DNA from: Squalus acanthias
Lineage: Eukaryota
Assembly: GCA_030390025.1 (NCBI GenBank)
Contig: JASTWF010000338.1
Span: 124,001-188,000 of the forward strand
Reading direction: 5' to 3'
DNA length: 64,000 nucleotides
Positions within the stretch are counted from its first letter, which is position 1, and each line of letters begins with the position of its first letter. Below are positions 23,981 through 64,000 of the stretch, one piece after another. The notes under the pieces are model-generated. The model was not told where the DNA came from. It saw only the letters and a list, made by a program, of their open reading frames with translations, and made no database searches. The position numbers and the translations under genes were made by a program.

Positions 23981-24206
23981 ATTTCCACCTCAATATTTAT
24001 GAGCATCAACCACTTGGGAACATTTATCGAAAACTTTGACTTGCCTGAGCACATTCATATATTATAACACATTGGTATGCTTCCCAGTACATAATCCTAG
24101 AATAGATTCATATACATTGCAGAATGCATTCTTATAGTTACCAGAACACTTTCATGTTCTTCCCAGAATGGATTCATACACTTCGCAGAGTGCATTCCTG
24201 TACTAA

Positions 24207-30839: not shown

Positions 30840-31530
30840 CGAATCATTGAATCAAGCAGAACAGAAGGAGGCCGTTTGGCCCATCGAGCCGGTGCTGCCT
30901 CTGATCAATCTACCAATTAGGACCACTCTCCGCTCTTTCCCCATAGCCCTGCAAATTGTTCCTTTTTAACTCGCGATCCTATTCCCAATTTAAAAGTTAC
31001 GATTGAATCTGCTCCCACCACCCTTTCAGGCAAAGCATTCCGGATCAGAACAACTCTCAGGGTAAAAATAAATTCTCCTCATCTCCCCCCTGGCTTTTTT
31101 GACAATTATTTTAAATCTGTGTCCTCTGCTAACCGACTCTCCTGCCAGTGGAAACAGTTTCGCCCTATCGACTCGATCAAAACCCCTCACAAACACTTTT
31201 ATTAAATCTCCCCTTAACATTCTCTGCTCTAAGAAGAGCAATCCCAGCTTCTCTGGTCTATCCCGATAACTGAAACCCTTCATCGCTGGAACCATTCTAG
31301 TTAATGTCCTCTGCACCCTCTCCAAGGCCTTGACCCCTTTCTAAATTCTGGTGCCCAGATTTGTGAGCAATCCTCTAGCTGAGGTCTAAACATTGATTTA
31401 TTAAGGTTTAGCATAACATCCTTGCATTTGTACACTAAGCCGCTATTTATAAAACCAAGGATCCCTTCTGCTTTTTTAACAGCTTTATCAACTTTTTCTT
31501 CCATGTTCAAAGCTTTATGTATGTGAACAC
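30840..31530 (-). mobile_element. CR1 LINE 3' fragment
   Basis: KAVKKAEGILGFIN...RPQLEDCSQIW...LRGDLIKV...RGHRFK. Confidence 0.8.
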
Positions 31531-31656
31531 CCTGTATATCTGGAGAGTATCGGAATGTGTTCTGGGAAATACATGGATGTGTTTTGGGTCGATGAATGTG
31601 TGCTGGATATATAAATGTGTTTTGGGAGTATATGAATGTGTTCTGAGACATTACAT

Positions 31657-32180
31657 CATTGAAGGCCATGGGATTAAAGGGCCAGTGGCAGCGTGGATAC
31701 AAAATTGTCTGAGGGACAGAAAGCAGAGAGCAGTGGTGAACGGGTGTTTTCGAGTGATGAGCCCAGGGGTCGCTATTCAGACCACTGCTCATTTTGATAG
31801 ATATCAATGACCTGGAATTGGATATACAGGGCATCATTTCCTACTTTGCAGATGACACGAAACTCCTGTTTAGTGAGGAGGATAGTAGCAGACTTCAGGA
31901 GGACTTAGACAGACTGGTGAAATGGGCCGACACATGGCAGATGGAATTTAACGCAGAGAAGTGTGAAGTGATACATTTTGGAAGGAAGAATGAGGAAAGG
32001 CAACATAAACAAAATGGTCCAATGTTAAAGGGAGTTCAGGTACAGAGAGACCTGAGGGTTTAGGTACAAAAATCTTTGTAGCTGGACGAACCAGTTATTC
32101 AGATTGTGAAAAAGCAAACGGGATCCTTGACTTTATAAATTGAGGCAGAGTAAAAAAGAAAGGAAGTTATGTTAAAGTAT
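31657..32180 (+). mobile_element. CR1 RT fragment (empty pre-integration site of the Penelope tandem at ~32137-32144)
   Basis: FADDTKL...LQEDLDRLVKWADTWQMEFNAEKCEV. Confidence 0.85.
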
Positions 32181-32734
32181 TTACCAGGGAGACTAAGGTA
32201 TTTTGGGGTCAGATTTCATCGATAAATTTGGTGTAATTGTGGATTATGCGAATGATCTGTTGTGTTTGTGAAAGGACACTATCACGGCAGAGTGGTATCG
32301 GACACGCGTGCTGTTTCTGTGATTGAGGATCCCGAGACATACGAGTAGTTACACACAGACCCGGACACACAAGCTCTGTTAACTCAGTATCGGGCCGCGC
32401 TCGCTACTCACAAGCACGATGGCGGGCGCTGATAGAGGAGGAGGTGGTGAACGGGCCGGCCCATGTTAAAGTAAAACAGTTCCCCATTCCAGCTGAGAGT
32501 CCGTTAGCGCTACAAACCACCATAGACACATTGCTGCAGCAGGGCGTTATACGGCCGGACACTTTTACAACTAATTCACCAATTTGGCCAGTTAAGAAAC
32601 TAGATGGGAGTTGTTGACTCTCGGTCGATTACCGAACCTTAAGCATGGTAACGCCGGCACGTGTCCTCATAGAGCGAGAGACGCCCACATTACTGTCCCA
32701 AATACCAAGGAAAACCAGGTAGCTCTTCAACCTG

Positions 32735-33180
32735 AAGTCGCACAACACCAGGTTATAGTCCAACAGATTTATTTAATTTTACAAGCTTTCGGAGCTGTTC
32801 GCTCCTTCTTCAGGTAAGGTAGCTGTGAGAGAATCTCCCAGAATTCACAATATAAACACAGAAAAAATCTATTCAAATCTTTCCCTACATCAAAGACACA
32901 CTAAGAGCACAGCCAAGACAATGAGATGTGTCCCAGGGGGTCCAACGTGTCAAAACACCTGCTGGCTGCATATCCTCTCCATTTGTTGTGTTAGTCTTTT
33001 TAAAACAAAACCTGGAAAGACCGGCCATGATGTCAAGTCACGTTCTGTATCGTGACATGAACCCGATATCGCGATTGAGGCCATCCTCATGAGTGCGGAA
33101 CTTGGCTATCAGTTTCTGCTCTATGATTTTGCGCTGTCGTGTATCCCGAAGGCCGCCTTGGAGAATGCTTACCCGCAGAT
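32735..33180 (-). mobile_element. 5'-truncated Penelope-like element with a 12-bp TSD
   Basis: Homologous to 58068-58625 (KLIAKFRTHEDGLNRD). TSD CTCTTCAACCTG at 32723-32734 and 33181-33192. Confidence 0.9.
32779..32817 (-). ncRNA. Minimal type-I hammerhead ribozyme (older Penelope copy)
   Basis: UUAC-CUGAAGA-A-GGAGC gaaca GCUCC-GAAA-GCUU-GUAA. Confidence 0.75.
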
Positions 33181-34339
33181 CTCTTCAACCTGGACATTGT
33201 AAATGGTATTTGGAGCATTCCCATCTGGCAGAAAGTGCAGAGCACTGATCAGCACAAGGTGGACATTATTCAAAGACTTCCCCTACCAGTTTCAAAGACA
33301 GCCCTGAGGTCACTCCTCGGATTAGTGGGGTACCAGCGATCCTTTATTCCCCACTTCGCAGAGGGAGCAAAACCATTGTAGGAATTTTTGAACTTACCGA
33401 GTGACGAGATAAAGGCACACAGTTTGCTGCCGTGTTTGTGCCAGCTCATTTTACTTTTGTCACGAGGAGACAGAAGGACATTTTGTCAGTGCTTGTTTGA
33501 TGATCATGTTTGATTTTGTGTCTTGTGGAAACATTTGAGTTGTGTTTTATTGAAGGTTAAGAAATACCTGCTTTAAGAAATTTTAATAAAATTTACCTCA
33601 TGTGCCAAAAAGATCTTTAATCTTACATTCCTGTTGTCCATTAAAAAAGAGGCTTGATACAGTCCCATCATTAAATAATCTTCACAATGATTCCCATAAT
33701 CAGTGATGTGTATCTGGAAATTGAAGTCTTATTGCTTCATACATTGACTTCTCGGGGATTTATGTTCAGTTTACACGGTGTTTTTAAAGTGTCAGTCAGG
33801 GGAAGAGATGTCAGTGCTGGGGGCTGGAATGTTCTCCACATTTCAGATGACCCCCAGTCAGCATCAAGTACTCCTGGACCGAGTGTAGCACAGACAGCTG
33901 CAGAGTAAAGTCCCATATGGAACCTCAGCCCAAAGCTCACAAGAGCAATCACTCCTCCACCAGTTGGACACTTCCATTTCCCACACCACTTGATCTTTTC
34001 CCCACTCGGAGTCAGATTACCAATGAGCGGACAGTTACAGCCATCCTTTGAGATGAAAGGATCATTTCCTGTCCACTTTACCACCCGTCCCACAGCTGAT
34101 CTCACTCGTCTCAGGCAAGTCAAAGCTTCAACACTGTTCCCCAGTGGTTGATGCTCAGAAATATTGGGGTGGAAATTATTTATGGCCCGTTTTTGGGCCA
34201 TAACCAGCGGTGCACCGACAGCGCATGTCCGAAGCCTGAGGCCGGCCTGAAATTGGATGTGGGCATCACCGGCAAGGCCAGCATTTATTGCCAATCCCTA
34301 ATTGTCCTCGAGAAGGTGGTGGTGAGCCGCCTTCTTCAA

Positions 34340-41691: not shown

Positions 41692-44428
41692 TGGGGACCC
41701 CCTGCAAATATTGACCCACTCCCAGGGACCCCCTGCAAATATTGACTCACTCCCAGGGACCCCCTGCAAATATTGACTCACTCCCAGGGACCCCCTGCAA
41801 ATATTGACACACTCCCAGGGACCCCCTGCAAATACTGACACACTCCCAGGGACCCCCTGCAAATATTGACTCACTCCCGAAGACCCCCTGCAAATATTGA
41901 CCCACTCCCAGGGACCCCCTGCAAATATTGACCCACTCCCAGGGACCCCCTGCAAATATTGACTCACTCCCAGGGACCCCCTGCAAATATTGACTCACTC
42001 CCAGGGACCCCCTGCAAATATTGACACTCTCCCAGGGACCCCCTGCAAATACTGACACTCTCCCAGGGACCCCCTGCAAATACTGACACTCTCCCAGGGA
42101 CCCCCTGCAAATACTGACACTCTCCCAGGACCCCCTGCAAATACTGACACTCTCCCAGGGACCCCCTGCAAATATTCGAATTGACACTCTCCCAGGGACC
42201 CCCTGCAAATACTGACACTCTCCCAGGGTCCCCCCTGCAAATATTGACTCACTCCCAGGGACCCCCTGCAAATATTGACTCACTCCCAGGGACCCCCTGC
42301 AAATATTGACTCACTCCCAGGGACCCCCTGCAAATATTGACTCACTCCCAGGGACCCCCTGCAAATATTGACTCACTCCCAGGGACCCCCTGCAAATATT
42401 GACTCACTCCCAGGGACCCCCTGCAAATATTGACACTCTCCCAGGGACCCCCTGCAAATATTGACTCACTCCCAGGGACCCCCTGCAAATATTGACTCAC
42501 TCCCAGGGACCCCCTGCAAATATTGACTCACTCCCAGGGACCCCCTGCAAATATTGACTCACTCCCAGGGACCCCCTGCAAATACTGACCCACTCCCAGG
42601 GACCCCCTGCAAATATTGACACTCTCCCAGGGACCCCCTGCAAATACTGACCCACTCCCAGGGACCCCCTGCAAATATTGACACTCTCCCAGGGACCCCC
42701 TGCAAATATTGACACACTCCCAGGGACCCCCTGCAAATATTGACACTCTCCCAGGGACCCCCTGCAAATATTGACTCACTCCCAGGGACCCCCTGCAAAT
42801 ATTGACTCACTCCCAGGGACCCCCTGCAAATATTGACACTCTCCCAGGGACCCCCTGCAAATATTGACACTCTCCCAGGGACCCCCTGCAAATATTGACA
42901 CTCTCCCAGGGACCCCCTGCAAATACTGACACTCTCCCAGGGACCCCCTGCAAATATTGACACTCTCCCAGGGACCCCCTGCAAATATTGACTCACTCCC
43001 AGGGACCCCCTGCAAATATTGACACTCTCCCAGGGACCCCCTGCAAATATTGACTCACTCCCAGGGACCCCCTGCAAATATTGACTCACTCCCAGGGACC
43101 CCCTGCAAATATTGACACTCTCCCAGGGACCCCCTGCAAATACTGACCCACTCCCAGGGACCCCCTGCAAATATTGACACACTCCCAGGGACCCCCTGCA
43201 AATACTGACCCACTCCCGAGGACCCCCTGCAAATATTGACCCACTCCCAGGGACCCCCTGCAAATACTGACACTCTCCCAGGGACCCCCTGCAAATATTG
43301 ACCCACTCCCAGGGACCCCCGGCAAATATTGACCCACTCCCAGGGTCCCCCCTGCAAATATTGACACTCTCCCAGGGACCCCCTGCAAATATTGACACTC
43401 TCCCAGGGTCCCCCTGCAAATATTGACACTCTCCCAGGGACCCCCTGCAAATATTGACACTCTCCCAGGGACCCCCTGCAAATATTGACACTCTCCCAGG
43501 GACCCCCTGCAAATATTGACCCACTCCCAGGGACCCCCGGCAAATATTGACACACTCCCGAAGACCCCCTGCAAATATTGACCCACTCCCAGGGTCCCCC
43601 CTGCAAATATTGACACTCTCCCAGGGACCCCCTGCAAATATTGACTCACTCCCAGGGACCCCCTGCAAATATTGACCCACTCCCAGGGACCCCCTGCAAA
43701 TATTGACCCACTCCCAGGGTCCCCCTGCAAATACTGACACTCTCCCAGGGACCCCCTGCAAATATTGACTCACTCCCAGGGACCCCCTGCAAATATTGAC
43801 ACTCTCCCAGGGACCCCCTGCAAATACTGACCCACTCCCAGGGACCCCCTGCAAATATTGATTCACTCCCAGGGACCCCCTGCAAATATTGACACTCTCC
43901 CAGGGACCCCCTGCAAATACTGACACTCTCCCAGGGACCCCCTGCAAATATTGACTCACTCCCAGGGACCCCCTGCAAATATTGACACTCTCCCAGGGAC
44001 CCCCTGCAAATATTGACTCACTCCCAGGGACCCCTGCAAATATTGACCCACTCCCAGGGACCCCCTGCCAATATTGATTCACTCCCAGGGACCCCCTGCA
44101 AATACTGACACACTCCCAGGGACCCCCTGCAAATATTGACAGACTGCCAGGGACCCCCTGCAAATATTGACACTCTCCCAGGGACCCCCTGCAAATATTG
44201 ACCCACTCCCAGGGACCCCCTGCCAATATTGATTCACTCCCAGGGACCCCCTGCAAATACTGACACACTCCCAGGGACCCCCTGCAAATATTGACAGACT
44301 GCCAGGGACCCCCTGCAAATATTGACACTCTCCCAGGGACCCCCTGCAAATATTGACACACTCCCAGGGACCCCCTGCAAATATTGATTCACTCCCAGGG
44401 ACCCCCTGCAAATATTGACACTCTCCCA
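41692..44428. repeat. 31-bp minisatellite (~88 units)
   Basis: Unit CAGGGACCCCCTGCAAATATTGAC(TCA/ACT/CCA/ACA)CTCC. Confidence 0.97.
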
Positions 44429-44624
44429 GTGTAGGATACAGGATTGTTTTGGGTCATGAACTTTTGACGTTGGCTAATGGAAATCCGAGCTTTAAGTTAA
44501 CCACAAACTACAGACTTCATCTACTGCAAAGGAAAACGACAGAAAACAGACACAGAACAGAAAAGGGTAAAGGCCGCGACTTTGGTTACTACAACAATCA
44601 CGGGAGGCAGATAGGGAGATATCA

Positions 44625-44822
44625 GGGGGAAATCACGGGGGGAGATTGCAGGGGGAAATCACGGCGGTAGATTGCAGGGGGAAATCACGGGGGGAGATTG
44701 CAGGGGGGGAATCACGGGGGGAGATTGCAGGGGGGGAATCACGGGGGGAGATTGCAGGGGGGAAATCACGGGGGGAGATTGCAGGGGGGGAATCACGGGG
44801 GGAGATTGCAGGGGGGAAATCG
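44625..44822. repeat. G-rich tandem repeat, ~26-27-bp unit (~7 units)
   Basis: (GGGGGGAATCACGGGGGGAGATTGCAG)n. Confidence 0.88.
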
Positions 44823-49005: not shown

Positions 49006-52000
49006 TAAAGTTTGACAGCTCCATTTATGTTACATGACTGAAGAGCACTTTAACAATTTACAACTGTAAAAATCAGTTCCAAGTATTGCTCTGAAATGCA
49101 GACCCTGTAAATGTCGGGATGGACAATTGGAATTTGGCTTCAGATCTGCTTTTGGAGGTCGGCTTTACTTCAGTGAACTTTGGGTGGTCCAGATCACACC
49201 GACATTTACAATGACCCTGTTTTTGAGAGAGGTACCGAGCTGATTTTACTATTTGCAATAAGAGACATGCAAGTCATCTCTTGGCCCCTCTTCTCAGTGA
49301 CATTTACAAAGTGCTTTACATTTTTCTATGTTGAACGAATGAGAGATGAAGAAAAACATTGTTAAAATTTGTAAAGTGACCTCATCTGGACCTGTTCCTT
49401 TGGACAAACCAAATACCTGAATTTTACTAATTGGAGATTTTATAACATGAGACACAAAATGTTCCTGCAATTCTCTCTGACTCTTTATTCTTGTCAGGCC
49501 TGGAAAATTACCAGCCATAAGCACAGACTCGATAACAACAGGGGCCCCACATGAATTAGATTTGGTCACCCTGCAGGATTCATTTGGCCTTCACCGAGGA
49601 GTCAAGGAATGGTCCTCTAACGGGACACCGTCACCTTCACCCATCGACTGGTTGGAGCAAACAGAGGTGATGGGGACAGAGCAGCCTCTGCTGTCCCACC
49701 GAGTACTGGGGGAGTCTGTACCAATAGTGTGTGTCCCACCACAGCTGGCGGAGGATTTCTTTCACATTCCCATCCGACAGGGGGACACTATTCAGCTGAG
49801 GTTACGTCTCAAAATGTGTGTAAGGTTGTTTGGTGGCCCGGTATAAAAGATGAAATTACGAAACACTGTCAATGATGTTTAGTTAGTTTACAACAGAACC
49901 TTTCCCTGCTCACTAATTGTGCTTTTCTCTGGTCTGCTCCACCCCCAGAGGGGCCGTGGACACATCTTCAAATCGGTTTTATTGGACCACTGCAAAGGTC
50001 CAGCGCAGGGCATCAATACTGCCTGGTGATTATCAACAAATTCACCAAGTGGATTGAGACCTTCCCATGTAAAACTAACACGGCAATTACTGCAGTGCGC
50101 TCACTGCTGAGTGAGGTGATCAGCAGGTGGGGATTGCCCACACAGGTAGATAGTGACCAAGTTACACACTTCATGGGACAAGATTTCATGGAATTGCAAA
50201 AATCGATTTCCACCCCAATATTTCTGAGCATCAACCACTTGGGAACATTGTCGAAACTTTGACTTGCCTGAACACATTCATATATCATAACACATTGATA
50301 TGCTTCCCAGTACATAATCCTAGAATAGATTCATATACTTCGCAGAATGCATTCTTATAGTTACCAGAACACTTTCATGTTCTTCCCAGAATGGATTCAT
50401 ATACTTCGCAGAGTGCATTCCTGTACTAACCAGAGACTTGAGCACAAGAAACTACTAGGCTGACACTCTAGTGTAGTACTGAGGGAGTGCTGCACTGTTG
50501 GAGGTGCTGTCTTTTGGGTTAGGCATTAAACCGAGGCCCCATCTGCCCGCACAGTGGATGTGAAAGATCACATGGCACTAATTTGAAGAAGAGCAGGGGA
50601 GTTCTCTCCGGTGTCCTGGCCAATATTTATCCCTCAATCAACATCGCTAAAAACAGAATTATGGTCATTATCACATTGCTGTTTGTAGGAGCTTGCTGTG
50701 TGCAAATTGGCTGCCGCGTTTCCTACATTACAATAGTGATTAATCTTCAAAAGAACTTCATTGGTTGAAAAGCACTTTGGGACGTCCTGAGGTAATTTAA
50801 GGCGCTATATAAATGTCTTACTTTCTTTCTGTCAAAACACATGCATATACTTCCCAGATTGCAGTCAGATACTTCCCAGAACACATTTGCGATCCCATAA
50901 CACATTCATGTATTTCCCAAAACACATTCATACAGAACATCCCAGAAAAAATGATATACTTCCCAGATCACGTTCATGTACTTCACAGACCACATTCCTA
51001 TACTTCCCATTTATATACTTCCCAGTATACATTCCTAGAACAGATTCATATACTTCCCTATACACATTAATGTATTTCCCAGAGCACTTTCATGTACCCA
51101 GAACCCATTCATCATACTTAGAATGTGGAACTCACTAACACAAGGAGCAGTTGTGGAGAATAACATAGATGAATTTCAGGGGATGCGACATAAACACATG
51201 AGGGAGAAAGGAGTAGAAGGTTATGCTGATAGGGTTGGATGAAGAGGGGTGGGAGGAGGCTCGTGTGGAGGATAAACACTGACATAGACCTGTTGGGCCA
51301 AATGGCCTGTTTCTGTGCTGTACATGTTGTGTGATTCTATGTAATGTAATAGAAACCTTTATAAATCACCAGATTCAGCCTCAGCTGCAGTATTGTCTCA
51401 AATTCTGGGCCCCACACTTTAGGAAGGATGTCACAGCCTTGGAAAGGGTGCAGAGGAGATTTACTAGAATGGTACCAGGAATGAGGGACTTCAGTTAGGT
51501 GGCGAGATTAGAGAAGCTGGAGTTGTTCATCTTAGAGCAGAGAAAGCTAAGGGGAGATTTAATGGAGGCCTTCAAAATCATGAAGGGTTTTGATAGAGGA
51601 AATCAGGAGCAACTGTTTCCACTGGCAGAAGGGTCGATAACCAGAGGACACAAACTTAAGGAAATTGGCAAAAGAGTCAGAGGTTAGATGAGGAGAATTT
51701 TTTTTATGCAGCGAGTTATTATGACCTGGAATGCACAGCCTGCAAGGATGGTGGAAGCAGATTCAATTGTAACTTTCAAAAAGAATTGGTTAAATACTTG
51801 AAGGGGAGAAAATTGCAAGGCTATGTGGAAAAGTTCAGAACTCAAATGTCAGAGCATTGGAATCACCATGGTACTCCATGGAACCATTGAGGTTTACAGC
51901 ACAGAAGGAAGTCATTTGGACCTTGTGTCTGTGTCAGCTCTGGGCGAGATATGATTGAATCATAGAATCAGAGAAAGATTGGGAGTCCACCAGCAATAGA

Positions 52001-55000
52001 ACAGAATTGCCCATGGAAAACCAAAAAACTTACTTGAGAGATGGAAGAAAGAAAGAGAGCGACCTCATTTAAAGGCAGCCTAATTTAAGGAGAAGAGTCT
52101 GAACTGGACGTGGCAGAAACAAGTGAGAGGAAGAGAAGAGCAGCTCATTTCAAGGGTGTCTGACAGGGTGGGTGAAGATGTCGCTGGTAGGGCCGAGGTA
52201 GAAGACCACTTGTATCTTTCTTAATCCTCCCCATAGCAGCAACTTATTTGGTTTATCTAGAGAAACAGAATATGAAGAGATTGGCCCGTATTTTCCGATC
52301 CCTACGGGTGTGTACGAGCTGTGTATACACCCGTAGCGACCTCGCAAGTGCCGGTTTCAGGCATGTGAAGTGCATGGACTGAAAACTGGCACTCCCGATC
52401 GGTCAAGAATCCTCTTGACAGATCGCACGCCTGCCCTGGAGAAGGGCCTCTGCGGGTGGAGAGTTCCGCTTTCTGTAGAACCTCCGCCCGCTGAAATCAC
52501 TTAAAAAATCTTACACCTGGTAAAAAAAAAATTTCACTCATTTATAATTTTAAAATACTTTTAGAAAAGGTAAGATTCATTTTAGCCCCGTAAAAAATTA
52601 TTTTTTTGTTTAAAATATTTAATTTAATGTAATTTTAACTAATTTTAAAAACGTGATAAAAAAAATGTATTTAATGTTTTGATGTGTTTTTTGAGTGATC
52701 CCCATTCATACTTTTGACAGGTCTAAGCTGAGATTCCTGTCAAAGTGTGAAGGGGGATTCCCTTCTTTCATTAGTTCCCCATGGCCCACGTGATCCCAGG
52801 GATGCTGGTGAACCGCCTGCGCCCCTGGGATTCCTGGGCCCTGCGCATTTCGTAGAGCAGAGGCCCAGGAGCGGAAATGTCCGGACCTCCGGAGCCCTCA
52901 GGTAAGGGCGTAGATTTTTTCCAGATCGGAGGCCTCCACACGCAGGAAGCCTCCAATGGGAAAATACGGGCCGTTGTATATTCGGCGGTTACCATGACGG
53001 TCCTCTGTAGTTTTTGTAGGTGCCTGATCGTGTTGTACCTTTGTTTGCGCTCCCAAACCTTTACACAGGCAAGCTGCAGATGATCCAGAAAAACCTGCAG
53101 CAGCCACTGGCCCTGGAATGCCTGTGTCCCCAACAGGTTCGGCTGCACGGCTGCTCAGGATCACCAAGTCTTCTTCCTCATGAGGGGTCAGCTGTCTGTT
53201 ACCAGAGGGACCACAACTCATGACCTGAGATTCTGGGTGGTTCTGGCTCACTTCCTCCTGTGAGAAAGAAGAGAAGAAGACATGAGTTCTGTAGTGAAGG
53301 CTGGACTGACATTCTGATTGAGGCATGTGCCTCGCTGTATTTATATTCGGCTGCTTTTCCCGACCCAACACCATTGTGGGAGCACCAACAACACAAGGAC
53401 TGCAGCAATTCAAGAAGAGGGCCCACCACCACCTTCTGAGGGCTATTGGGGATGGGCAATAAATACGACTTTGCGCAAGCGCAAAATTTAACATTGGAAA
53501 AGCGGGTCCCGGGCTGGGCTGGACCGGCAGAGAGCTGCGCGGCCGTTAGAGGGAGCATTGGTCAGGAGCCCACTGTTTGCTGCCATTTTTGTGCCAGCTC
53601 ATTTTACTTTTGTCACTAAGAGATGGAAAGACATTTTGTCAATGCTAGTTTGATGATCACGTTAGATTTTGTGTCTTGTGGAAACATTTGAGTCGTGTTT
53701 TGCAGAGAGTGAAAAACTTGCTTCAAGAAATTATGTTAAAATCTACCTTCTGATCCAAAAAAGATCTTTCATTTAATTGATAAATACATTACTGCTTGTC
53801 CATTAAATGAGAGGCTTGATACAGTCCCATCATTAAATTATCTCAGCAATAATTCCCATAATTAGTGATGTGTATCAGGAAATGGAAGTTTTATTGCCTC
53901 CGAAATAATGTCCCTTTGCTTGCAAGGCTTCCTGGCATAATACACCAATCCGAATCTTCGCACCTTACACCAAACCATATTCCCATTTGATTTCCAGATT
54001 TTCAATTGTTTGCCGAATATAAAATTTGGGAACCAATTATTTAACCCCTTTTTGATCTGATTAATTAAAGACCTCCAATCATACTACACAGAATTTCCTT
54101 TGAGATCAATTGTTCCTTATAGTTTTTGTTGTTCCCACAATTAGTATTTCGATTAGGAAAGACAGTCACAAATGACATCCTGTGTGACTGTGACAAAGGC
54201 AAACTATCCCTCCTCGACCTTCTCGACCTGTCTGCAGCCTTTGACACGGTTGACCACTCCATCCTTCTCCAACACCTCTCCACCGTCGTCCAGCTGGGTG
54301 GGACTGCACGCGCCTGGTTCCATTATTATCTGTCTAATAATCGTAGCCAGAGAATCACCTGCAATGGCTTCGCTTCCCGCTCCTGCATTGTTACCTCTGG
54401 TGTTCCCCAAGGATCTATTCTTGGCCCCCTCCAATATCTCATCTACATGCTGTCCCTCGGTGACATCATCTGAAATCACAGCGTCAGTTTCCACATGTAC
54501 GCTGATGACACCCAGTTCTACCTCACCACCACTCCTCTCGACCCCTCCACTGTCTGTAAGTTGTCAGACTGCTTGTCCGACATCCAGTACTGGATGAACA
54601 GAAATTTCCTCGAACTAAATATTGGGAAGACCAAAGGCATTGCCTTCGCCTCCACCACAAACTCCGCTCCCTAGCCATCAACTCCATCCAAATCTCTAGC
54701 CTCTGTCTAATACTGAACCATACTGTTCGCAACCTTGGTGTCATATTTGACCCTGAAATGAGCTTCTGACTACATATCCACACCATCACTAAGACCAACT
54801 ATTTCCACCTCCGTAACATTGCCTGACTCACTCCTGCCTCAGCTCATCTCTGCTGAAACCCTCATCCATGTTTTTGTTACCTCTAGACTTGACTCTTCCA
54901 ATGCACTCCTGACTGGTCTCCCACGTTCCACCCTACATAAACTGGAGGTCATCCAAAACATAAGAACATAAGAAATAGGTGCAGGAGTCGGCCATTTGGC

Positions 55001-58000
55001 CCTTCGAGCCTGCTCCGCCATTCAATAAGATCATGGCTGATCTTCTACTTCATCTTCACTTTCCTGCACTATCCCCATATCCTTTGATTCCCTTAATATT
55101 CAAAAATCTATCGATCCCTGTCTTGAATATACTCAACGACTGAGCCTCCACAGCCTTCTGGGGTAGAGAATTCCAAAGATTCACCACCCTCTGAGTGAAG
55201 AAATTTCTCCTCATCTCAGTCCTAAATGGCCGACCCCTTATTCTGAGACTGTGACCCCTGGTTCTAGGCTCCCCAGCCAGGGGAAACGTCCTCCCTGCAT
55301 CTACCCTGTCAAGGCCTGTAAGAATTGTATATGTTTCAATGAGATCACCTCTCATTCTTCTAAACTCTAGAGAATATAGGCCTAGTCTACTCAATCTGTC
55401 CTCATAGGACAATCCCCCATCCCAGGTGAACCTTCGTTGCACTCCATCTATGGCAAGTATATCCTTCCTTAGGTAAGGAGACCAAAACTGTACACAATAC
55501 TCCAGCTGTGGTCTCACCAGGGCCCTATATAATTGCAGTAAGACGTCTTTGCTCTTATACTCAAATCCTCTTGTATTAAAGGCCAACATACCATTTGCTT
55601 TCCTAAATGATTGCTGTACCTGCATGTTAACTTTCAGTGATTCGTGTATAAGGAGACCCAGGTCCCACTGAACACCAACATTTCCCAATCTCTCACCATT
55701 TAAAAAACTCTGCTTTTCTATTTTTCCTACCAAAGTGGATAACTTCACATAACTTTCGCAGTAGTGAGCGTGGTGGTGTCACTCCGAGCTGAAACTTAAA
55801 AACCGAATACAGCTTGTCTTTCCATTCAGCAATTCAATGTGGCAAATAGAAGTAAGGGGTTAATTACATGTTCACTGTGAAAAACCCTTGGGGGTGGGGA
55901 GGAGTCAGCCAGCACAATGGCAGTTTCAGACCTGCTGTTTAATCAATAAAAAAGTGCATTAAAAGTTCAAATTGTAACTTTGTAAATCTCCAAAGCTGCT
56001 TTTTATCCTCTTTAAAAAAAAGTCTTTGTGTGTTTCAACAGTGGAATAAAATAAATTTCATTCAGAATAAATCCACACCAGCGTCTTGAATTTAAAATGT
56101 CCAATTTTCATTAAAGGACAAGGGGGGAAAATTGAGTTGCGCCAACTTTGGGGCGCTAACTTCGCCGGGGCGGTCATTTTAGTGCCCCAAAAATAATTAG
56201 CGCCCCCACAGCTGAAATTGAATGGTAGTGCCCCAAGAGGGAAGCGGGGTGCGACTGGAAGCGCCCCACCTCCCTCTTGGGGCACTGCGAGGGAATAGGA
56301 CGCTAAAAGAGTGTGACATTAATTTCAGCTTACCAACCATATTCACGCTCTCAGCGTCACACTCCAGGTACCTCAATCACACTCCATCACTGAATCCTTA
56401 TTTGCTCTCATCCCCCTTAAAAAAATATATGAATTCCCTGTAAAGGTTCTGAACTCACAGGTCGTAGGCCCAAGGAACATCAACATAGTTTAAATAAGTA
56501 GATGTCTGTAGTGGCCCTCCACAGAAATCCGGTATTATAATTTGATAATTTGATCAGACACTCAGCCTGACAACTTAAAAACTCATGTGAGAAAGACCTT
56601 TAGTCAGACTTGTATTGGCTCCTGTTTAAAAGTGTTCTCCTTCTCATCCGTTGCTGGAAGGACGGGGTGTAGTGAATGGAAAGGGGCTCCTGGGGAGTGT
56701 AAATTGTTGTTGCTGTTGTTGAAGTACATGAATGCATTCTGGGAAGTGTATGAATGTGTTCTCGAATCATTGAATCAAGCAGAACAGAAGGAGGCCGTTT
56801 GGCCCATCGAGCCGGTGCTGCCTCTGATCAATCTACCAATTAGGACCACTCTCCGCTCTTTCCCCATAGCCCTGCAAATTGTTCCTTTTTAACTTGCGAT
56901 CCTATTCCCAATTTAAAAGTTACGATTGAATCTGCTCCCACCACCCTTTCAGGCAAAGCATTCCGGATCAGAACAACTCTCAGGGTAAAAATAAATTCTC
57001 CTCATCTCCCCCCTGGCTTTTTTGACAATTATTTTAAATCTGTGTCCTCTGCTAACCGACTCTCCTGCCAGTGGAAACAGTTTCGCCCTATCGACTCGAT
57101 CAAAACCCCTCACAAACACTTTTATTAAATCTCCCCTTAACATTCTCTGCTCTAAGAAGAGCAATCCCAGCTTCTCTGGTCTATCCCGATAACTGAAACC
57201 CTTCATCGCTGGAACCATTCTAGTTAATGTCCTCTGCACCCTCTCCAAGGCCTTGACCCCTTTCTAAATTCTGGTGCCCAGATTTGTGAGCAATCCTCTA
57301 GCTGAGGTCTAAACATTGATTTATTAAGGTTTAGCATAACATCCTTGCATTTGTACACTAAGCCGCTATTTATAAAACCAAGGATCCCTTCTGCTTTTTT
57401 AACAGCTTTATCAACTTTTTCTTCCATGTTCAAAGCTTTATGTATGTGAACACCCTGTATATCTGGAGAGTATCGGAATGTGTTCTGGGAAATACATGGA
57501 TGTGTTTTGGGTCGATGAATGTGTGCTGGATATATAAATGTGTTTTGGGAGTATATGAATGTGTTCTGAGACATTACATCATTGAAGGCCATGGGATTAA
57601 AGGGCCAGTGGCAGCGTGGATACAAAATTGTCTGAGGGACAGAAAGCAGAGAGCAGTGGTGAACGGGTGTTTTCGAGTGATGAGCCCAGGGGTCGCTATT
57701 CAGACCACTGCTCATTTTGATAGATATCAATGACCTGGAATTGGATATACAGGGCATCATTTCCTACTTTGCAGATGACACGAAACTCCTGTTTAGTGAG
57801 GAGGATAGTAGCAGACTTCAGGAGGACTTAGACAGACTGGTGAAATGGGCCGACACATGGCAGATGGAATTTAACGCAGAGAAGTGTGAAGTGATACATT
57901 TTGGAAGGAAGAATGAGGAAAGGCAACATAAACAAAATGGTCCAATGTTAAAGGGAGTTCAGGTACAGAGAGACCTGAGGGTTTAGGTACAAAAATCTTT

Positions 58001-58067
58001 GTAGCTGGACGAACCAGTTATTCAGATTGTGAAAAAGCAAACGGGATCCTTGACTTTATAAATTGAG
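49006..58067 (+). repeat. Segmental duplication, copy B (IN relic ~49562-50200, DeuSINE ~50430-50831, MITE 52283-52972, L2 ~54156-54958, CR1 pieces)
   Basis: Collinear with 21149-32144. Lacks the solo LTR and ~298 bp (copy A ~25610-25908). Interrupted by Penelope at ~58067. Confidence 0.95.
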
Positions 58068-58111
58068 AGGTCGCACAACACCAGGTTATAGTCCAACAGT
58101 TTTATTTGAAA

Positions 58112-58149
58112 TCACAAGCTTTCGGAGCTATCACTCCTTCCTCAGGTGA
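58112..58149 (-). ncRNA. Minimal type-I hammerhead ribozyme in the Penelope pLTR
   Basis: UCAC-CUGAGGA-A-GGAG ugauag CUCC-GAAA-GCUU-GUGA, followed by AAUAAA. Confidence 0.75.
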
Positions 58150-58482
58150 AGTAAATTGGATACAGAATCGCCAGAGCATATATAGATGGAAAAAAAAGCA
58201 TGTGTACTTTACAATTGCAGACCAATAAATTAAATCATCCTGACTATCTGCCGAGGTGTGATAAAGTTAATTAAGTCAGCCAGGAAGGTACCACATCAAA
58301 AGACATAGCAAGATACAACTGAGACAATGAGGTGTAGTCGCAGGGGTTCCAACGTGTCAAAAGCTGCCGTCTGTATGTAAAACGAAAAGCTTTAAAAAAA
58401 ATTTACTTTTTTACTGGGAAAATTTTTACTTTTTTACTGGGAATCACATCTGTGAACAAGCTAACGACGACTCGAGTCCGGA

Positions 58483-61161
58483 TCACGTCATGTATCGTGA
58501 CATAAACCCAAGATCCCGATTGAGACCGTCTTCATGAGTTCGGAACTTGGCTATCAGTTTCTGCTCGATGATTTTGCGTTGTCGTGTGTTTCTAAGGTTG
58601 CCTTGGAGAACGCTTACCCGCAGATCCGAGGCTGAATGTCCTTGACTGCTGAAGTGTTCCCCGACTGGGAGGTAACAATCCTGCCTGGCGATTGTTGCGC
58701 GGTGCTCGTTCATACGTTGTCTCAGTGTCTGCATGGTCTCGCCGATGTACCATGCCGCGGTGCATTCTTTCCTGCAACGTATGAGGTAGACAACGTTGGC
58801 CGAGTCACATGAGTATGTACCATGTACCTGGTGGGTAGTGTCCTCACGTGTGATGGTGGTATCTGTGTTGATGATCTGGCATGTCTTGCAGAGTTTGCCA
58901 TGGCAGGGTTGTGTGGTGTCGTGGTCGCTGTTATCCTGAAAGCTGGGTAATTTGCTGCGAACGATGGTACTTCTGAGGTTAGGCGGCTGTTTGAAGGCAA
59001 GTAGTGGAGGCGTGGGGATGGCCTTAGCGAGGTGTTTGTCGTCATCGATGACATGTTGAAGGCTGCGAAGAACATGTCGTAGTTTCTCCGCTCCGGGGAA
59101 GTACTGGACGACGTAGGGTACCCTGTTGGTTGTGTCCCGTGTTTGCCTTCTGAGGAGGTCTATGCGATTTTTCGCTGTGGCCCGTCGGAACTGTCGATCG
59201 ATGAGTCGAGCGTCATATCCCGTTCTTACGAGGGCGTTTTTCAGCGTCCGTAGGTGTCCATCGCGTTCCTCCTCGTCTGAGCAGATCCTGTGTATTCGCA
59301 GGGCTTGTCCATAGGGGATGGCTTCTTTAACATGGTTAGGGTGGAAGCTGGAGAAGTGGAGCATCGTGAGGTTGTCCGTGGGCTTGCGGTAGAGTGAAGT
59401 GCTGAGGTGTCCGTCTTTGATGGAGATTCGTGTGTCCAGGAATGAGACCGATTCTGAGGAGTAGTCCATGGTGAGTTTGATGGTGGGATGGAACTTGTTT
59501 ATGTTATCGTGTAGTCTTTTCAGTGATCCTTCGCCATGGGTCCAAAGGAAGAAAATGTCGTCGATGTATCTGGTGTACAGCGTTGGCTGGAGGTCCTGTG
59601 CAGCGAAGAAGTCTTGCTCGAACTTGTGCATGAAGATGTTGGCGTATTGGGGTGCGAATTTGGTCCCCATGGCTGTTCCGTGTGTTTGGGTAAAAAAATG
59701 GTTGTCGAAGGTGAAGACATTGTGGTCAAGGATGAAGCGGATGAGTTGTAGGATGGCGTCTGGAGATTGGCTGTTGTTGATGTTGAGTACTGAGGCTGTT
59801 GCAGCGATGCCGTCATCGTGGGGGATACTGGTGTAGAGTGCCGATACGTCCATCGTGGCAAGGAGTGTTCCTGGTTCAACTGGTCCGTGGGTGCTGAGTT
59901 TCTGTAAGAAGTCTGTAGTGTCGCGACAGAAGCTGGGGGTTCCCTGTACGATGGGTTTCAGAATGCCCTCGACGTATCCAGAGAGGTTCTCACACAGGGT
60001 TCCATTGCCTGATACGATAGGACGTCCGGGTGTGTTGGCTTTGTGTATCTTTGGGAGGCAGTAGAAGTCTCCCACGCGGGGAGTACGTGGGATGAGAGCG
60101 CGTAGGATGTTTTGAAGGTCTGGATCGAAGGTCTTGATCAGTCTATTGAGTTGGCGGGTGTGTTCTTTGGTCGGATCTGCGGGTAGCTGTCTGTAGTGTT
60201 CCTGGTTGTCCAGTTGTCGGTATGCTTCTTTACAATAGTCCGTTCTGTTCTGTATGACGATGGCTCCTCCTTTGTCCGCTGGTTTGATGACAATGTTGCG
60301 GTTGGTCTTGAGAGCGTGGATGGCGTTGCGTTGTGCTCGGGTGACATTCTGGACTGTCTTGTGAGTGCGGCTGATGAATCTGGCGTTGATGCATTTCCTG
60401 ACAGCTTGAGCATACATGTCAAGCTTGGGGCAGCGACCCTCCGGAGGGGTCCAGTTTGACTCTTTTTTCTTCGGTTGCTGCACTGCGAGTCCCTCTGTCT
60501 GCTGTTCTGGATCATTGATTGTCTCATTGGGTTTGTTGCTGACATCTTGGGATTTGTGGAAGTATTCCCGGAGCCTCATTCTCCTGATGAATTCCTCCGT
60601 GTCTGCCGCGAGACCGATGGGGTCCATTTTGGTGGTTGGGCAGAACTTGAGCCCTAGGGCGAGAACTTCGATTTCGTCTGGTTGAAGGGTGTGGTCCGAC
60701 AGGTTGACGATGGACTTCCCTGTGGTTGCAACCATGGTACCGGGGGAGGCTTGGTTGCTGCTGGTGGTGATGCCGAGTTTCTCAAGCTTCCTGTTCTTGA
60801 TGCGCATGTAGGCAGCGTAGTTCCGTTGCCTCGTCTGTTTGGTGGTGTCTCGTAACTGGTCTGCTGTGTCCTGAGCACAGGCTGAGAGCATGGACTCTAT
60901 CTTGGTTTCGAGGTTGTGGCGTTTGCTGTAGAGCTGGTGTACGAGATGGTTGAGGAGTGTGCGAGAGGTACGACGGCAGAGTCTCTCAGCGTAGTCTGTG
61001 TTGTATGTCGACTTGAGTGGGTTCGTGATCTGTAGTCCTTTCGGGATCTTGTCTGCTTTCTTGCATCTCTGTAGATACTTGATGTCGGTGTCGATATGCG
61101 CGATCTTCTTGGCGATTCTCTCCACTTTGAGCCGGCAGTTTGTGGTGTCGATAGTGGTCAT
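58483..61161 (-). CDS. Penelope-like RT / GIY-YIG endonuclease, 892 aa from the ATG at 61161 (frame open to 61233), intact
   Basis: N-terminal YLQRC..IPKG; VIKPADKGG; PKIHK..PGRPIVS; DVSALYTSIP; GTAMG; YIDD; Cys linker CHGKLCKTC; VVYLIRC...YIGET; terminal GLN. Confidence 0.95.
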   Translation of the reverse strand: MTTIDTTNCRLKVERIAKKIAHIDTDIKYLQRCKKADKIPKGLQITNPLKSTYNTDYAERLCRRTSRTLLNHLVHQLYSKRHNLETKIESMLSACAQDTADQLRDTTKQTRQRNYAAYMRIKNRKLEKLGITTSSNQASPGTMVATTGKSIVNLSDHTLQPDEIEVLALGLKFCPTTKMDPIGLAADTEEFIRRMRLREYFHKSQDVSNKPNETINDPEQQTEGLAVQQPKKKESNWTPPEGRCPKLDMYAQAVRKCINARFISRTHKTVQNVTRAQRNAIHALKTNRNIVIKPADKGGAIVIQNRTDYCKEAYRQLDNQEHYRQLPADPTKEHTRQLNRLIKTFDPDLQNILRALIPRTPRVGDFYCLPKIHKANTPGRPIVSGNGTLCENLSGYVEGILKPIVQGTPSFCRDTTDFLQKLSTHGPVEPGTLLATMDVSALYTSIPHDDGIAATASVLNINNSQSPDAILQLIRFILDHNVFTFDNHFFTQTHGTAMGTKFAPQYANIFMHKFEQDFFAAQDLQPTLYTRYIDDIFFLWTHGEGSLKRLHDNINKFHPTIKLTMDYSSESVSFLDTRISIKDGHLSTSLYRKPTDNLTMLHFSSFHPNHVKEAIPYGQALRIHRICSDEEERDGHLRTLKNALVRTGYDARLIDRQFRRATAKNRIDLLRRQTRDTTNRVPYVVQYFPGAEKLRHVLRSLQHVIDDDKHLAKAIPTPPLLAFKQPPNLRSTIVRSKLPSFQDNSDHDTTQPCHGKLCKTCQIINTDTTITREDTTHQVHGTYSCDSANVVYLIRCRKECTAAWYIGETMQTLRQRMNEHRATIARQDCYLPVGEHFSSQGHSASDLRVSVLQGNLRNTRQRKIIEQKLIAKFRTHEDGLNRDLGFMSRYMT

Positions 61162-61248
61162 GATGCGGAGATGCCGGTGTTGGACTGGGGTGGACAAAAT
61201 TGAGAGGTCGCACAACACCAGGTTATAGTCCAACAGTTTTATTTGAAA

Positions 61249-61286
61249 TCACAAGCTTTCGGAGCTATCACTCCTTCCTCAGGTGA
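61249..61286 (-). ncRNA. Minimal type-I hammerhead ribozyme (between tandem units)
   Basis: Identical to 58112-58149; lies ~90 nt upstream of the ATG at 61161. Confidence 0.75.
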
Positions 61287-61619
61287 AGTAAATTGGATAC
61301 AGAATCGCCAGAGCATATATAGATGGAAAAAAAAGCATGTGTACTTTACAATTGCAGACCAATAAATTAAATCATCCTGACTATCTGCCGAGGTGTGATA
61401 AAGTTAATTAAGTCAGCCAGGAAGGTACCACATCAAAAGACATAGCAAGATACAACTGAGACAATGAGGTGTAGTCGCAGGGGTTCCAACGTGTCAAAAG
61501 CTGCCGTCTGTATGTAAAACGAAAAGCTTTAAAAAAAATTTACTTTTTTACTGGGAAAATTTTTACTTTTTTACTGGGAATCACATCTGTGAACAAGCTA
61601 ACGACGACTCGAGTCCGGA

Positions 61620-64000
61620 TCACGTCATGTATCGTGACATAAACCCAAGATCCCGATTGAGACCGTCTTCATGAGTTCGGAACTTGGCTATCAGTTTCTG
61701 CTCGATGATTTTGCGTTGTCGTGTGTTTCTAAGGTTGCCTTGGAGAACGCTTACCCGCAGATCCGAGGCTGAATGTCCTTGACTGCTGAAGTGTTCCCCG
61801 ACTGGGAGGTAACAATCCTGCCTGGCGATTGTTGCGCGGTGCTCGTTCATACGTTGTCTCAGTGTCTGCATGGTCTCGCCGATGTACCATGCCGCGGTGC
61901 ATTCTTTCCTGCAACGTATGAGGTAGACAACGTTGGCCGAGTCACATGAGTATGTACCATGTACCTGGTGGGTAGTGTCCTCACGTGTGATGGTGGTATC
62001 TGTGTTGATGATCTGGCATGTCTTGCAGAGTTTGCCATGGCAGGGTTGTGTGGTGTCGTGGTCGCTGTTATCCTGAAAGCTGGGTAATTTGCTGCGAACG
62101 ATGGTACTTCTGAGGTTAGGCGGCTGTTTGAAGGCAAGTAGTGGAGGCGTGGGGATGGCCTTAGCGAGGTGTTTGTCGTCATCGATGACATGTTGAAGGC
62201 TGCGAAGAACATGTCGTAGTTTCTCCGCTCCGGGGAAGTACTGGACGACGTAGGGTACCCTGTTGGTTGTGTCCCGTGTTTGCCTTCTGAGGAGGTCTAT
62301 GCGATTTTTCGCTGTGGCCCGTCGGAACTGTCGATCGATGAGTCGAGCGTCATATCCCGTTCTTACGAGGGCGTTTTTCAGCGTCCGTAGGTGTCCATCG
62401 CGTTCCTCCTCGTCTGAGCAGATCCTGTGTATTCGCAGGGCTTGTCCATAGGGGATGGCTTCTTTAACATGGTTAGGGTGGAAGCTGGAGAAGTGGAGCA
62501 TCGTGAGGTTGTCCGTGGGCTTGCGGTAGAGTGAAGTGCTGAGGTGTCCGTCTTTGATGGAGATTCGTGTGTCCAGGAATGAGACCGATTCTGAGGAGTA
62601 GTCCATGGTGAGTTTGATGGTGGGATGGAACTTGTTTATGTTATCGTGTAGTCTTTTCAGTGATCCTTCGCCATGGGTCCAAAGGAAGAAAATGTCGTCG
62701 ATGTATCTGGTGTACAGCGTTGGCTGGAGGTCCTGTGCAGCGAAGAAGTCTTGCTCGAACTTGTGCATGAAGATGTTGGCGTATTGGGGTGCGAATTTGG
62801 TCCCCATGGCTGTTCCGTGTGTTTGGGTAAAAAAATGGTTGTCGAAGGTGAAGACATTGTGGTCAAGGATGAAGCGGATGAGTTGTAGGATGGCGTCTGG
62901 AGATTGGCTGTTGTTGATGTTGAGTACTGAGGCTGTTGCAGCGATGCCGTCATCGTGGGGGATACTGGTGTAGAGTGCCGATACGTCCATCGTGGCAAGG
63001 AGTGTTCCTGGTTCAACTGGTCCGTGGGTGCTGAGTTTCTGTAAGAAGTCTGTAGTGTCGCGACAGAAGCTGGGGGTTCCCTGTACGATGGGTTTCAGAA
63101 TGCCCTCGACGTATCCAGAGAGGTTCTCACACAGGGTTCCATTGCCTGATACGATAGGACGTCCGGGTGTGTTGGCTTTGTGTATCTTTGGGAGGCAGTA
63201 GAAGTCTCCCACGCGGGGAGTACGTGGGATGAGAGCGCGTAGGATGTTTTGAAGGTCTGGATCAAAGGTCTTGATCAGTCTATTGAGTTGGCGGGTGTGT
63301 TCTTTGGTCGGATCTGCGGGTAGCTGTCTGTAGTGTTCCTGGTTGTCCAGTTGTCGGTATGCTTCTTTACAATAGTCCGTTCTGTTCTGTATGACGATGG
63401 CTCCTCCTTTGTCCGCTGGTTTGATGACAATGTTGCGGTTGGTCTTGAGAGCGTGGATGGCGTTGCGTTGTGCTCGGGTGACATTCTGGACTGTCTTGTG
63501 AGTGCGGCTGATGAATCTGGCGTTGATGCATTTCCTGACAGCTTGAGCATACATGTCAAGCTTGGGGCAGCGACCCTCCGGAGGGGTCCAGTTTGACTCT
63601 TTTTTCTTCGGTTGCTGCACTGCGAGTCCCTCTGTCTGCTGTTCTGGATCATTGATTGTCTCATTGGGTTTGTTGCTGACATCTTGGGATTTGTGGAAGT
63701 ATTCCCGGAGCCTCATTCTCCTGATGAATTCCTCCGTGTCTGCCGCGAGACCGATGGGGTCCATTTTGGTGGTTGGGCAGAACTTGAGCCCTAGGGCGAG
63801 AACTTCGATTTCGTCTGGTTGAAGGGTGTGGTCCGACAGGTTGACGATGGACTTCCCTGTGGTTGCAACCATGGTACCGGGGGAGGCTTGGTTGCTGCTG
63901 GTGGTGATGCCGAGTTTCTCAAGCTTCCTGTTCTTGATGCGCATGTAGGCAGCGTAGTTCCGTTGCCTCGTCTGTTTGGTGGTGTCTCGTAACTGGTCTG
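61620..64000 (-). CDS. Second Penelope-like RT / GIY-YIG ORF, 5' end beyond the window
   Basis: Translation identical to copy 1 over the visible 774 aa. Confidence 0.93.
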   Translation of the reverse strand, partial: DQLRDTTKQTRQRNYAAYMRIKNRKLEKLGITTSSNQASPGTMVATTGKSIVNLSDHTLQPDEIEVLALGLKFCPTTKMDPIGLAADTEEFIRRMRLREYFHKSQDVSNKPNETINDPEQQTEGLAVQQPKKKESNWTPPEGRCPKLDMYAQAVRKCINARFISRTHKTVQNVTRAQRNAIHALKTNRNIVIKPADKGGAIVIQNRTDYCKEAYRQLDNQEHYRQLPADPTKEHTRQLNRLIKTFDPDLQNILRALIPRTPRVGDFYCLPKIHKANTPGRPIVSGNGTLCENLSGYVEGILKPIVQGTPSFCRDTTDFLQKLSTHGPVEPGTLLATMDVSALYTSIPHDDGIAATASVLNINNSQSPDAILQLIRFILDHNVFTFDNHFFTQTHGTAMGTKFAPQYANIFMHKFEQDFFAAQDLQPTLYTRYIDDIFFLWTHGEGSLKRLHDNINKFHPTIKLTMDYSSESVSFLDTRISIKDGHLSTSLYRKPTDNLTMLHFSSFHPNHVKEAIPYGQALRIHRICSDEEERDGHLRTLKNALVRTGYDARLIDRQFRRATAKNRIDLLRRQTRDTTNRVPYVVQYFPGAEKLRHVLRSLQHVIDDDKHLAKAIPTPPLLAFKQPPNLRSTIVRSKLPSFQDNSDHDTTQPCHGKLCKTCQIINTDTTITREDTTHQVHGTYSCDSANVVYLIRCRKECTAAWYIGETMQTLRQRMNEHRATIARQDCYLPVGEHFSSQGHSASDLRVSVLQGNLRNTRQRKIIEQKLIAKFRTHEDGLNRDLGFMSRYMT

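Follow-up and report, generated by a model that had tools for sequence, protein, structure and literature searches.

A young, intact and probably still mobile Penelope-like element of the Neptune-like type, arranged in tandem with minimal hammerhead motifs, in Squalus acanthias

Tandem layout of the locus

We analysed a 64,000-nt stretch of the Squalus acanthias genome (assembly GCA_030390025.1, contig JASTWF010000338.1, positions 124,001 to 188,000; hereafter the window), the end of which is occupied by head-to-tail units of a Penelope-like element (PLE). All PLE features described below lie on the minus strand. At an offset of 3137 nt, positions 58060–60863 recur as 61197–64000 with a single mismatch in 2804 nt. 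Unit 1, the 3'-most one (58060..61196), is a complete 3137-nt unit with a leader, an open reading frame (ORF), and a 3' untranslated region (UTR) containing the pseudo-long terminal repeat (pLTR). Unit 2 (61197..64000) lies upstream and was recognized by the repeat at this offset; it is cut by the window edge and contributes 2804 nt. Its frame is open from 63998 to 61620, running stop-free for 792 aa from the window edge to the stop at 61620. The leader before the ATG (61160..61196) is C/A-rich and equals an optional "tail" of around 37–45 nt in the family, as indicated by loose contig ends at 61152–61160 with mixed flanks and by a step in depth. Collectively, the locus is a young, intact PLE of the Zn-linker (Neptune-like) type that is probably still mobile.

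The sole difference between the units is G at 60127 against A at 63264, a synonymous change in codon 345 (TTC/TTT, Phe) and a CpG transition, which is the commonest germline change. The initial annotation had described two near-identical units spaced by 3137 nt, this one synonymous change, and open frames for reverse transcriptase (RT) and GIY-YIG in both units, all of which are borne out (892 aa and 792 aa of frame). Its term "tandem array" is apt for the head-to-tail order; in number, the array amounts to at least 1.89 units, since the window covers 1.89 units and two hammerhead ribozyme motifs, and any third hammerhead would lie outside it together with the far end of the array. Tandem or partial-tandem arrangement forming pLTRs is a hallmark of endonuclease-containing (EN+) PLEs and is present here. 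In Drosophila virilis, tandems make up around 30% of Penelope copies (PMC2377424).

The encoded protein and its clade

The ORF of unit 1 (58483..61161, from the ATG at 61161 to the stop at 58483) encodes 892 aa. Motifs, alignment and a structure model identify N-terminal helices, GLKF (170), DKG (296), the RT motifs with D438 and YIDD (532–535), a thumb, a Zn linker, and a GIY-YIG endonuclease. The Pfam RVT_1 family matches the unit 1 protein with E = 1.4e-8. The structure model, built from a 98-sequence alignment, reached a mean predicted local distance difference test score of 92.6, and the five best solved structures retrieved with it by Foldseek were all telomerase (TERT) RTs. A PDB sequence search with the 892-aa protein returned no relative at E ≤ 0.01. 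A telomerase-like RT is expected for PLEs (PMC8557442), and a single ORF with a telomerase-related RT, a feature of EN+ PLEs, is present here.

The RT and the endonuclease are joined by a Zn-finger-like linker of the form CX4CxxC (C753, C758, and C761; 58879..58905), which is at least 90% conserved in the 98 sequences. The endonuclease (58519..58794) combines a GIY-YIG domain with a CCHH motif, as read from motifs and alignment (VVY 790, C796, C800, YIG 805, R816, H820, and H836), and this C-terminal combination is again that of EN+ PLEs. Pfam GIY-YIG gave no match in the query protein itself, though 7 of 14 aligned members match; the domain call rests on motifs and alignment because Pfam scores the RT but not the GIY-YIG domain in the query. 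Most motif residues (GLKF, DKG, the RT aspartates, the linker, GIY-YIG, and CCHH) are at least 90% conserved in the alignments. Furthermore, of the 33 family variants listed in the ORF, 19 are synonymous, a larger share than the 33% expected of transitions (p = 0.004, with 40 of 114 variants listed and each classed singly). From this synonymous excess and the conserved catalytic residues, the ORF looks functional.

A CX2-5CxxC linker between RT and endonuclease is common to the Neptune and Nematis clades and absent in Penelope/Poseidon (PMC8557442). The linker at C753–C761 is of this form; it excludes Penelope/Poseidon and points to the Neptune or Nematis clade. A survey of vertebrates found Neptune and Poseidon, with no Nematis listed. 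The clade is thus likely Neptune, a placement made from the linker and the vertebrate survey. For the earlier label "Neptune-type", this means that the Zn-linker type is supported, and that the choice of Neptune over Nematis is likely.

The closest named relatives are shark proteins, from Heptranchias (92% identity), Scyliorhinus (86%), and Mustelus (82%). A Heptranchias epn2 isoform model (P0013) holds a piece 94% identical to 29% of the ORF, which by sequence could be either an exonised PLE or an annotation merge.

Hammerhead motifs in the pLTRs

Each pLTR carries a minimal type-I hammerhead. Hammerhead 1 (58112..58149), identified with a descriptor and by comparison with an older copy of the family in the window, consists of a 4-bp helix I, the CUGAGGA box, an extra A, a 5-bp helix II, GAAA, an AGCU palindrome, and a CUU triplet, with a predicted cut between 58116 and 58115. 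Hammerhead 2 (61249..61286), found with the descriptor, is identical; its predicted cut, between 61253 and 61252, precedes the unit 1 ATG by 91 nt. Core position C3 lies at 58145 and 61282, and helix II contains one U-G pair. The boxes, the extra base at 9/10.1, helices I and II, the palindromic positions 15.2–16.2, and the NUH triplet all have the form of minimal type-I PLE hammerheads. The CUU triplet obeys the NUH rule, and U17 at the cleavage site is usually slow. The helix III possible in a dimer is 4 bp long and formed by the 4-nt palindrome AGCU. The initial annotation had taken stem III to be the palindrome AAGCUU; the sequence is palindromic as it said, but only AGCU could pair, the outer A and U being core A14 and the cleavage base U17.

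Three matches were obtained with a relaxed minimal-hammerhead descriptor on both strands of the 64 kb: the two units and the older copy (C3 at 32813). All three lie in pLTRs of this PLE family, and none of 1000 Markov-resampled units matched, which upholds the earlier claim of a hammerhead core in each pLTR. Rfam gave no match over the window at the gathering score and no hammerhead family among the three matches at E ≤ 10, so the evidence for the motif comes from the descriptor and from variation between copies. The hammerhead of the older copy keeps 9 of 9 pairs, one of them altered on both sides and one on one side, with N7 and loop 2 changed. With two distinct sequences, the pair count falls short of significance, being reached by 243 of 500 shuffles, though slid controls pair at just 22–50%. 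Loose contig ends in two sequencing runs, X1 and X2, contain further hammerhead variants, again with helix II kept and N7 and loop 2 changed. By these sequence comparisons, the hammerhead motif is real and conserved.

Two elements follow the motif on its 3' side. An AAUAAA hexamer (58101..58106 and 61238–61243) lies 9 nt 3' of the predicted cut with a GU-rich stretch behind it, and the older copy has retained it; from its sequence, the pair is a possible poly(A) signal. A 30-nt block (58070..58099), directly 5' of the first cDNA start site described below, is identical in the aligned young and older copies, unlike the sequence 5' of the ribozyme, which has diverged between them.

Folding models describe how readily the motif might form. 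Helix II forms with a probability of about 0.95 and helix I with only about 0.4, and a competing hairpin covers GAAA. The isolated hammerhead dimer scored −18.7 against −21.2 for two monomers. For a 3271-nt RNA with both ribozymes, the cis dimer reached −759.3 kcal/mol, two monomer folds −777.7 kcal/mol, and the free fold −785.4 kcal/mol, so that the cis double hammerhead stands 18–26 kcal/mol above the alternative folds in the nearest-neighbour model, in which Mg2+, protein, and kinetics are left out. By this model, the active dimer form would not be favoured unaided. Whole-motif folding z-scores were near zero (0.35, −0.02, and 0.13). A hairpin was also considered in which the 30-nt block pairs with the tail and the 8 matched bases fall in the loop; it folds no better than shuffles (z of −0.58, 0.42, and 0.04) and is kept as an idea only.

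Insertion site and age

The left flank of the array (51833..58067) is, by alignment, a 99.7% duplicate of 25909–32144 with 17 mismatches and one gap, and it ends in a decayed long interspersed nuclear element (LINE) that received the PLE. At the paralogous site (32137..32144), the LINE continues without a PLE; reading this as an empty site assumes that homology resumes beyond the array, outside the window. Because the paralogous site lacks the PLE, the insertion is very young. The two units differ at 1 of 2804 positions against 18 of 6236 in the flanking duplicates (Fisher p = 0.012). The observed/expected CpG ratio is 0.86 in the element, which is not CpG-depleted, versus 0.46 in the flank.

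At the 3' junction, 8 nt (58060..58067) are common to the target site and the element's own sequence in the alignment. The chance of such a match at one fixed register is around 2e-5. Because these junction bases belong equally to target and element, the cDNA began somewhere from 58060 to 58068. Such a match is a hint of annealed priming, as far as the sequence of a single junction can indicate.

The older copy (32735..33181), recognized by alignment and descriptor, is a 5'-truncated relative comprising the last 47 codons and the 3' UTR, and its 3' end aligns to 58068. It is flanked by a 12-bp target duplication (32723–32734 and 33181–33192); the corresponding far end of the young array lies outside the window. 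The older relative sits in a decayed long terminal repeat (LTR)-element protease/RT remnant around 32723–33192, presumably Gypsy-like by its motifs, which itself follows the LINE at the empty site.

Family copies in sequencing-run contigs

At least half of the stretch's words were found in 18 sequencing runs under four organism labels plus one unlabelled. Contigs of four runs (X1, X2, X8, and X12) were examined, with 24 of 1946 loose ends, 40 of 114 variants, and 15 of 83 joints listed. The pLTR-leader joint occurs in two contigs of X1 and eight of X2, with 26–32 letters on the short side; it is evidence for a pLTR with a tail, not for two whole units. Among the loose ends listed, 24 contigs in X8 and X12 end with mixed flanks at 61152 (3), 61157 (6), and 61160 (15), and none ends at the cut site. 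Summed depth in the bin with 61160–61196 is 8, 18, around 200, and around 200 times that of the next bin in the four runs, and depth drops steeply across the ORF towards its 5' end; depth is not taken as copy number. We read this pattern of contig depth and ends as many 5'-truncated copies, many of them with a tail of around 37–45 nt ending at the ATG. An optional 3' tail of 30–40 nt, as known in PLEs, is thus present in the family (ends 61152–61160) and absent at the 3' end of this copy.

In X1, 44 loose ends fall at 58060; we do not count them as ends of the element, since their consensus resembles the tail. No expression is claimed from X8 and X12, which are only guessed to be RNA runs and cover the LINE flank too. 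Neither a GT[AG]AG donor in the pLTR/leader nor an intron-like joint among the 15 of 83 joints listed was found.

A near-identical element appears under the four organism labels (0.58–0.89 of words), and one organism B contig in X12 matches unit 1 at 383 of 384 nt. Such near-identity across organisms could reflect, judging from sequence, either close relatives with slow divergence or horizontal transfer. One X2 contig joins 58063 to 61162 with 27 letters on the short side, linking a LINE that ends 4 nt from the insertion point to a tail-bearing PLE end; this may represent another insertion into that AT-rich motif of the LINE.

Origin of the tandem

The positions of the cDNA starts constrain the template. 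In both insertions of the window (2/2), the cDNA extends past the cut site and starts at the equivalent of 58067/58068, 48 nt 3' of the cut. A second cluster of family ends lies around 93 nt 3' of the cut, and the gap between the two start sites is the tail. From these sites, a cut linear monomer could template only 48–93 nt. Since cDNA synthesis began 3' of the cut at either site, the template was not the cut linear monomer but either uncut RNA or a re-ligated circle.

The account we favour, tentatively and at slightly less than even odds, is that the tandem arose in a single round of target-primed reverse transcription, with uncut multi-unit RNA as template or with a template jump. The GIY-YIG domain would nick the AT-rich target site, and the RT would start inside its own RNA at one of the two sites, 48 and around 93 nt 3' of the cut. 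From there it would copy across the hammerhead, still uncut, and continue over more than one unit of a multi-unit read-through transcript; alternatively, it would jump to a second RNA copy. The hammerhead would be under selection and likely cut slowly, as a dimer with protein help, and its role would be the trimming or regulation of transcripts rather than a required step of integration. This route is favoured because an anole PLE inserts from unprocessed RNA and Naiad PLEs arrive at the same tandems although they lack canonical hammerheads (PMC8557442). In the anole element, RT initiates at two internal sites bounding the tail, hammerhead mutants insert normally, the RNA used is mainly unprocessed, and the ribozyme requires protein to cut; no RNA reads begin or end at the cut (PMC11167929).

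Several points weigh against synthesis on uncut RNA. A linear template needs a source of at least three units or a template jump, neither of which is seen in the window, and a circle would in one step turn any pLTR-ORF-pLTR source into cDNA longer than a unit. The AAUAAA and GU-rich stretch could end transcripts before the start sites; if used, the signal would limit read-through and so bears on all RNA routes. The hammerhead helices are kept between subfamilies, so the motif does something. The anole data come from another clade (Poseidon) and from short RNAs in vitro, and the map of ends and the variant test draw on the listed subset (24 of 1946 loose ends and 40 of 114 variants). Energies of 3-kb RNAs are unreliable, the models ignoring Mg2+, protein, and folding kinetics. 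Finally, unequal exchange between pLTRs would look identical.

The last point leads to the next account, that the tandem was built after a first insertion, either because the two pLTRs of a pLTR-ORF-pLTR copy exchanged unequally or because the element's cDNA re-inserted into the element's own end; we consider it rather unlikely, though a serious competitor. The locus lies within a region of young duplications (23089–32144 versus 49314–58067), 8 nt of the target resemble the element's own end, and in X1 and X2 there are joints, for example 58094 to 61161, that look like copies within the ends of other copies. PLEs tend to insert into or beside earlier copies (PMC6765202), and the anole enzyme nicks its own pLTR (PMC11167929). 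Against it, the junction is seamless and without a target duplication, and the tandem is too young to leave much time for two steps. The units also share family-rare alleles, such as that at 60734, where around 98–100% of the X1 and X2 depth differs, and because of this an insertion from another locus is unlikely.

An unlikely third account, the rolling circle, has the two hammerheads of a pLTR-ORF-pLTR transcript cut and a host ligase seal the 3137-nt unit, after which the RT starts 48 nt past the junction and circles nearly twice or more. The cut-to-cut distance is exactly one unit with the whole ORF inside, an arithmetic that had been given correctly at the outset, and cDNA starts just 3' of the cut, as a circle allows. 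The near-identity of the units fits as well, and small retrozymes with type-I hammerheads do form circles, those of axolotl cutting better as dimers (PMC7229834). In RNA sequence, the junction of such a circle would look the same as the tandem joint in the genome. However, minimal PLE hammerheads were inactive as monomers in vitro and had low activity as dimers (PMC4209133), the anole PLE yielded no RNA reads beginning or ending at the cut site and its ribozyme is dispensable (PMC11167929), and Naiads reach the same tandems without canonical hammerheads. The cis dimer costs 18–26 kcal/mol in the folding model, and our literature search found no report of a unit-length PLE circle, most subscription papers and Repbase being outside the search. 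By model and by analogy, the cis-dimer energies and the dispensable anole ribozyme count against self-processing as a working route. A single frame read continuously round the circle was rejected, 3137 not being a multiple of 3 and the ORF having a stop. The initial annotation had stressed an upstream partner of at least 2.8 kb as the supplier of two ribozymes in cis; this is nothing special, since hammerhead 58112–58149 lies within the last ~90 nt, and a long partner is unnecessary because any pLTR of around 90 nt already supplies one ribozyme.

A more specific form of the circle is decidedly improbable in our estimate: the family would replicate through a 3137-nt protein-coding, hammerhead-made circle, the last 8 nt of the nicked target would anneal to the loop of the hairpin between 30-nt block and tail, and the RT would start 48 nt past the sealed junction and roll into multi-unit arrays. 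If true, this coding-circle route would make the family the first autonomous retroelement of vertebrates whose circular template is made by a ribozyme and whose priming relies on base pairing, in which it would differ from the anole PLE.

That the second unit is an assembly duplication is very improbable. In its favour, the units are near-identical, the far end lies outside the window, no contig of the four runs spans the locus, and the X1/X2 joints have just 26–32 letters on the short side; against it, the sole difference is a CpG transition and not an indel, the same assembly resolves a 6.2-kb duplicate of 99.7% identity and an 8.4-kb satellite, and the boundary is the family's natural pLTR-leader junction in a group where tandems are common.

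Other features of the window

The duplication that includes the left flank (23089–32144 versus 49314–58067, around 26 kb apart) consists of two blocks, 98.0% identical over 2.5 kb and 99.7% over 6.2 kb, with around 300 nt between them that are found only in the first copy. The sequences suggest two block ages, which may stem from gene conversion or two-step duplication. Within the duplicated block, an integrase-core fragment at 49876–50262 on the plus strand (Pfam rve, E = 2.8e-7, below the curated cut-off) marks a broken LTR element. A 60-nt self-complementary stretch is present in both duplicates (30304–30363 and 56227–56286).

The remnant of a different PLE endonuclease at 19638–19835 is 42% identical to residues 816–881. 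Satellite arrays occupy 1–9407, 10553–11241, 41694–44429, and 44625–44821, with units of 67 bp (over around 8.4 kb), 27/54 bp, and 31 bp (88 copies), and a short 27-bp array.

Comparison with known systems

The interpretation of such loci is not new. Cervera and de la Peña described in 2014 minimal hammerheads around 3 kb apart around PLE ORFs, Neptune of fishes included, and proposed cleavage, ligation to circles, and more-than-unit cDNA (PMC4209133); a 2019 review restated this cut-ligate-copy model (PMC6765202). Tandem hammerheads, dimer cleavage, and the cut-circularise-copy route were thus published in 2014 and 2019, and the circularising tandem hammerhead PLE, put forward by the initial annotation as its own inference, had been proposed before.

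The motifs agree with those minimal PLE hammerheads in the type-I core, the extra nucleotide at 9/10.1, G10.1-C11.1, the palindromic 15.2–16.2, the lack of loop 3, and the 4-bp helix I, as well as in their tandem placement around 3 kb apart around an ORF (PMC4209133). Helix II has 5 bp here and 7–8 bp in the Schistosoma motifs of the same paper, the available text of which does not name a shark host; both units here have open frames. With the Neptune-clade EN+ PLEs of Craig et al. 2021 (PMC8557442), the element has in common the single ORF of RT and C-terminal GIY-YIG, DKG, GxKF, CCHH, the CX2-5CxxC linker, pLTRs, the tail, and 5' truncation, whereas its target is an AT-rich site in a decayed LINE and not a (TA)n microsatellite. 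We found no literature on shark Neptune elements, and likewise none on unit-length PLE circles, in a search with most subscription papers and Repbase outside it.

PAc, a Poseidon of Anolis carolinensis (Frangieh et al. 2024, PMC11167929), is the only full-length PLE protein studied in vitro, according to that paper. It resembles the present element in its tandem locus, a hammerhead 5' of two tail-bounding RT start sites, AC-rich sequence at these sites, and an AT-rich target containing ATT. In contrast, PAc belongs to the Penelope/Poseidon clade and is without the Zn linker. In PAc, the hammerhead and the start codon overlap and reverse transcription begins within the ORF, whereas the hammerhead and the RT start lie 5' of or at the ATG here. 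PAc was also primed without homology, while the junction here has an 8-nt match; for Penelope, microhomology has been described at the 5' junction (PMC3846280). Self-cleaving ribozymes can promote cap-independent translation in viruses, as reported in 2026 (PMC13725137), and it is a speculation by analogy that the cut 91 nt before the ATG could serve such translation.

The locus exemplifies a known arrangement well, with a young, intact PLE of Neptune-like type in a cartilaginous fish, and it bears on how PLEs rebuild tandems and what their hammerheads do. For the other large vertebrate clade of PLEs, it offers an intact ORF, natural ribozyme variants, start sites that have been mapped, and the target as it was before insertion. 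Should circles of unit length prove to be the true template, the 2014 hypothesis would be settled and retrozymes linked to autonomous partners. Animal non-LTR retrozymes (PMC7229834; Li et al. 2026, 10.64898/2026.07.22.740005) have been proposed to derive from PLE pLTRs and likewise form head-to-tail units, each with a type-I hammerhead. Their monomers, however, are short, non-coding, and non-autonomous, and their circles have been shown by experiment, whereas the unit described here, known from sequence, has 3137 nt, codes for an 892-aa ORF, and carries a minimal motif.

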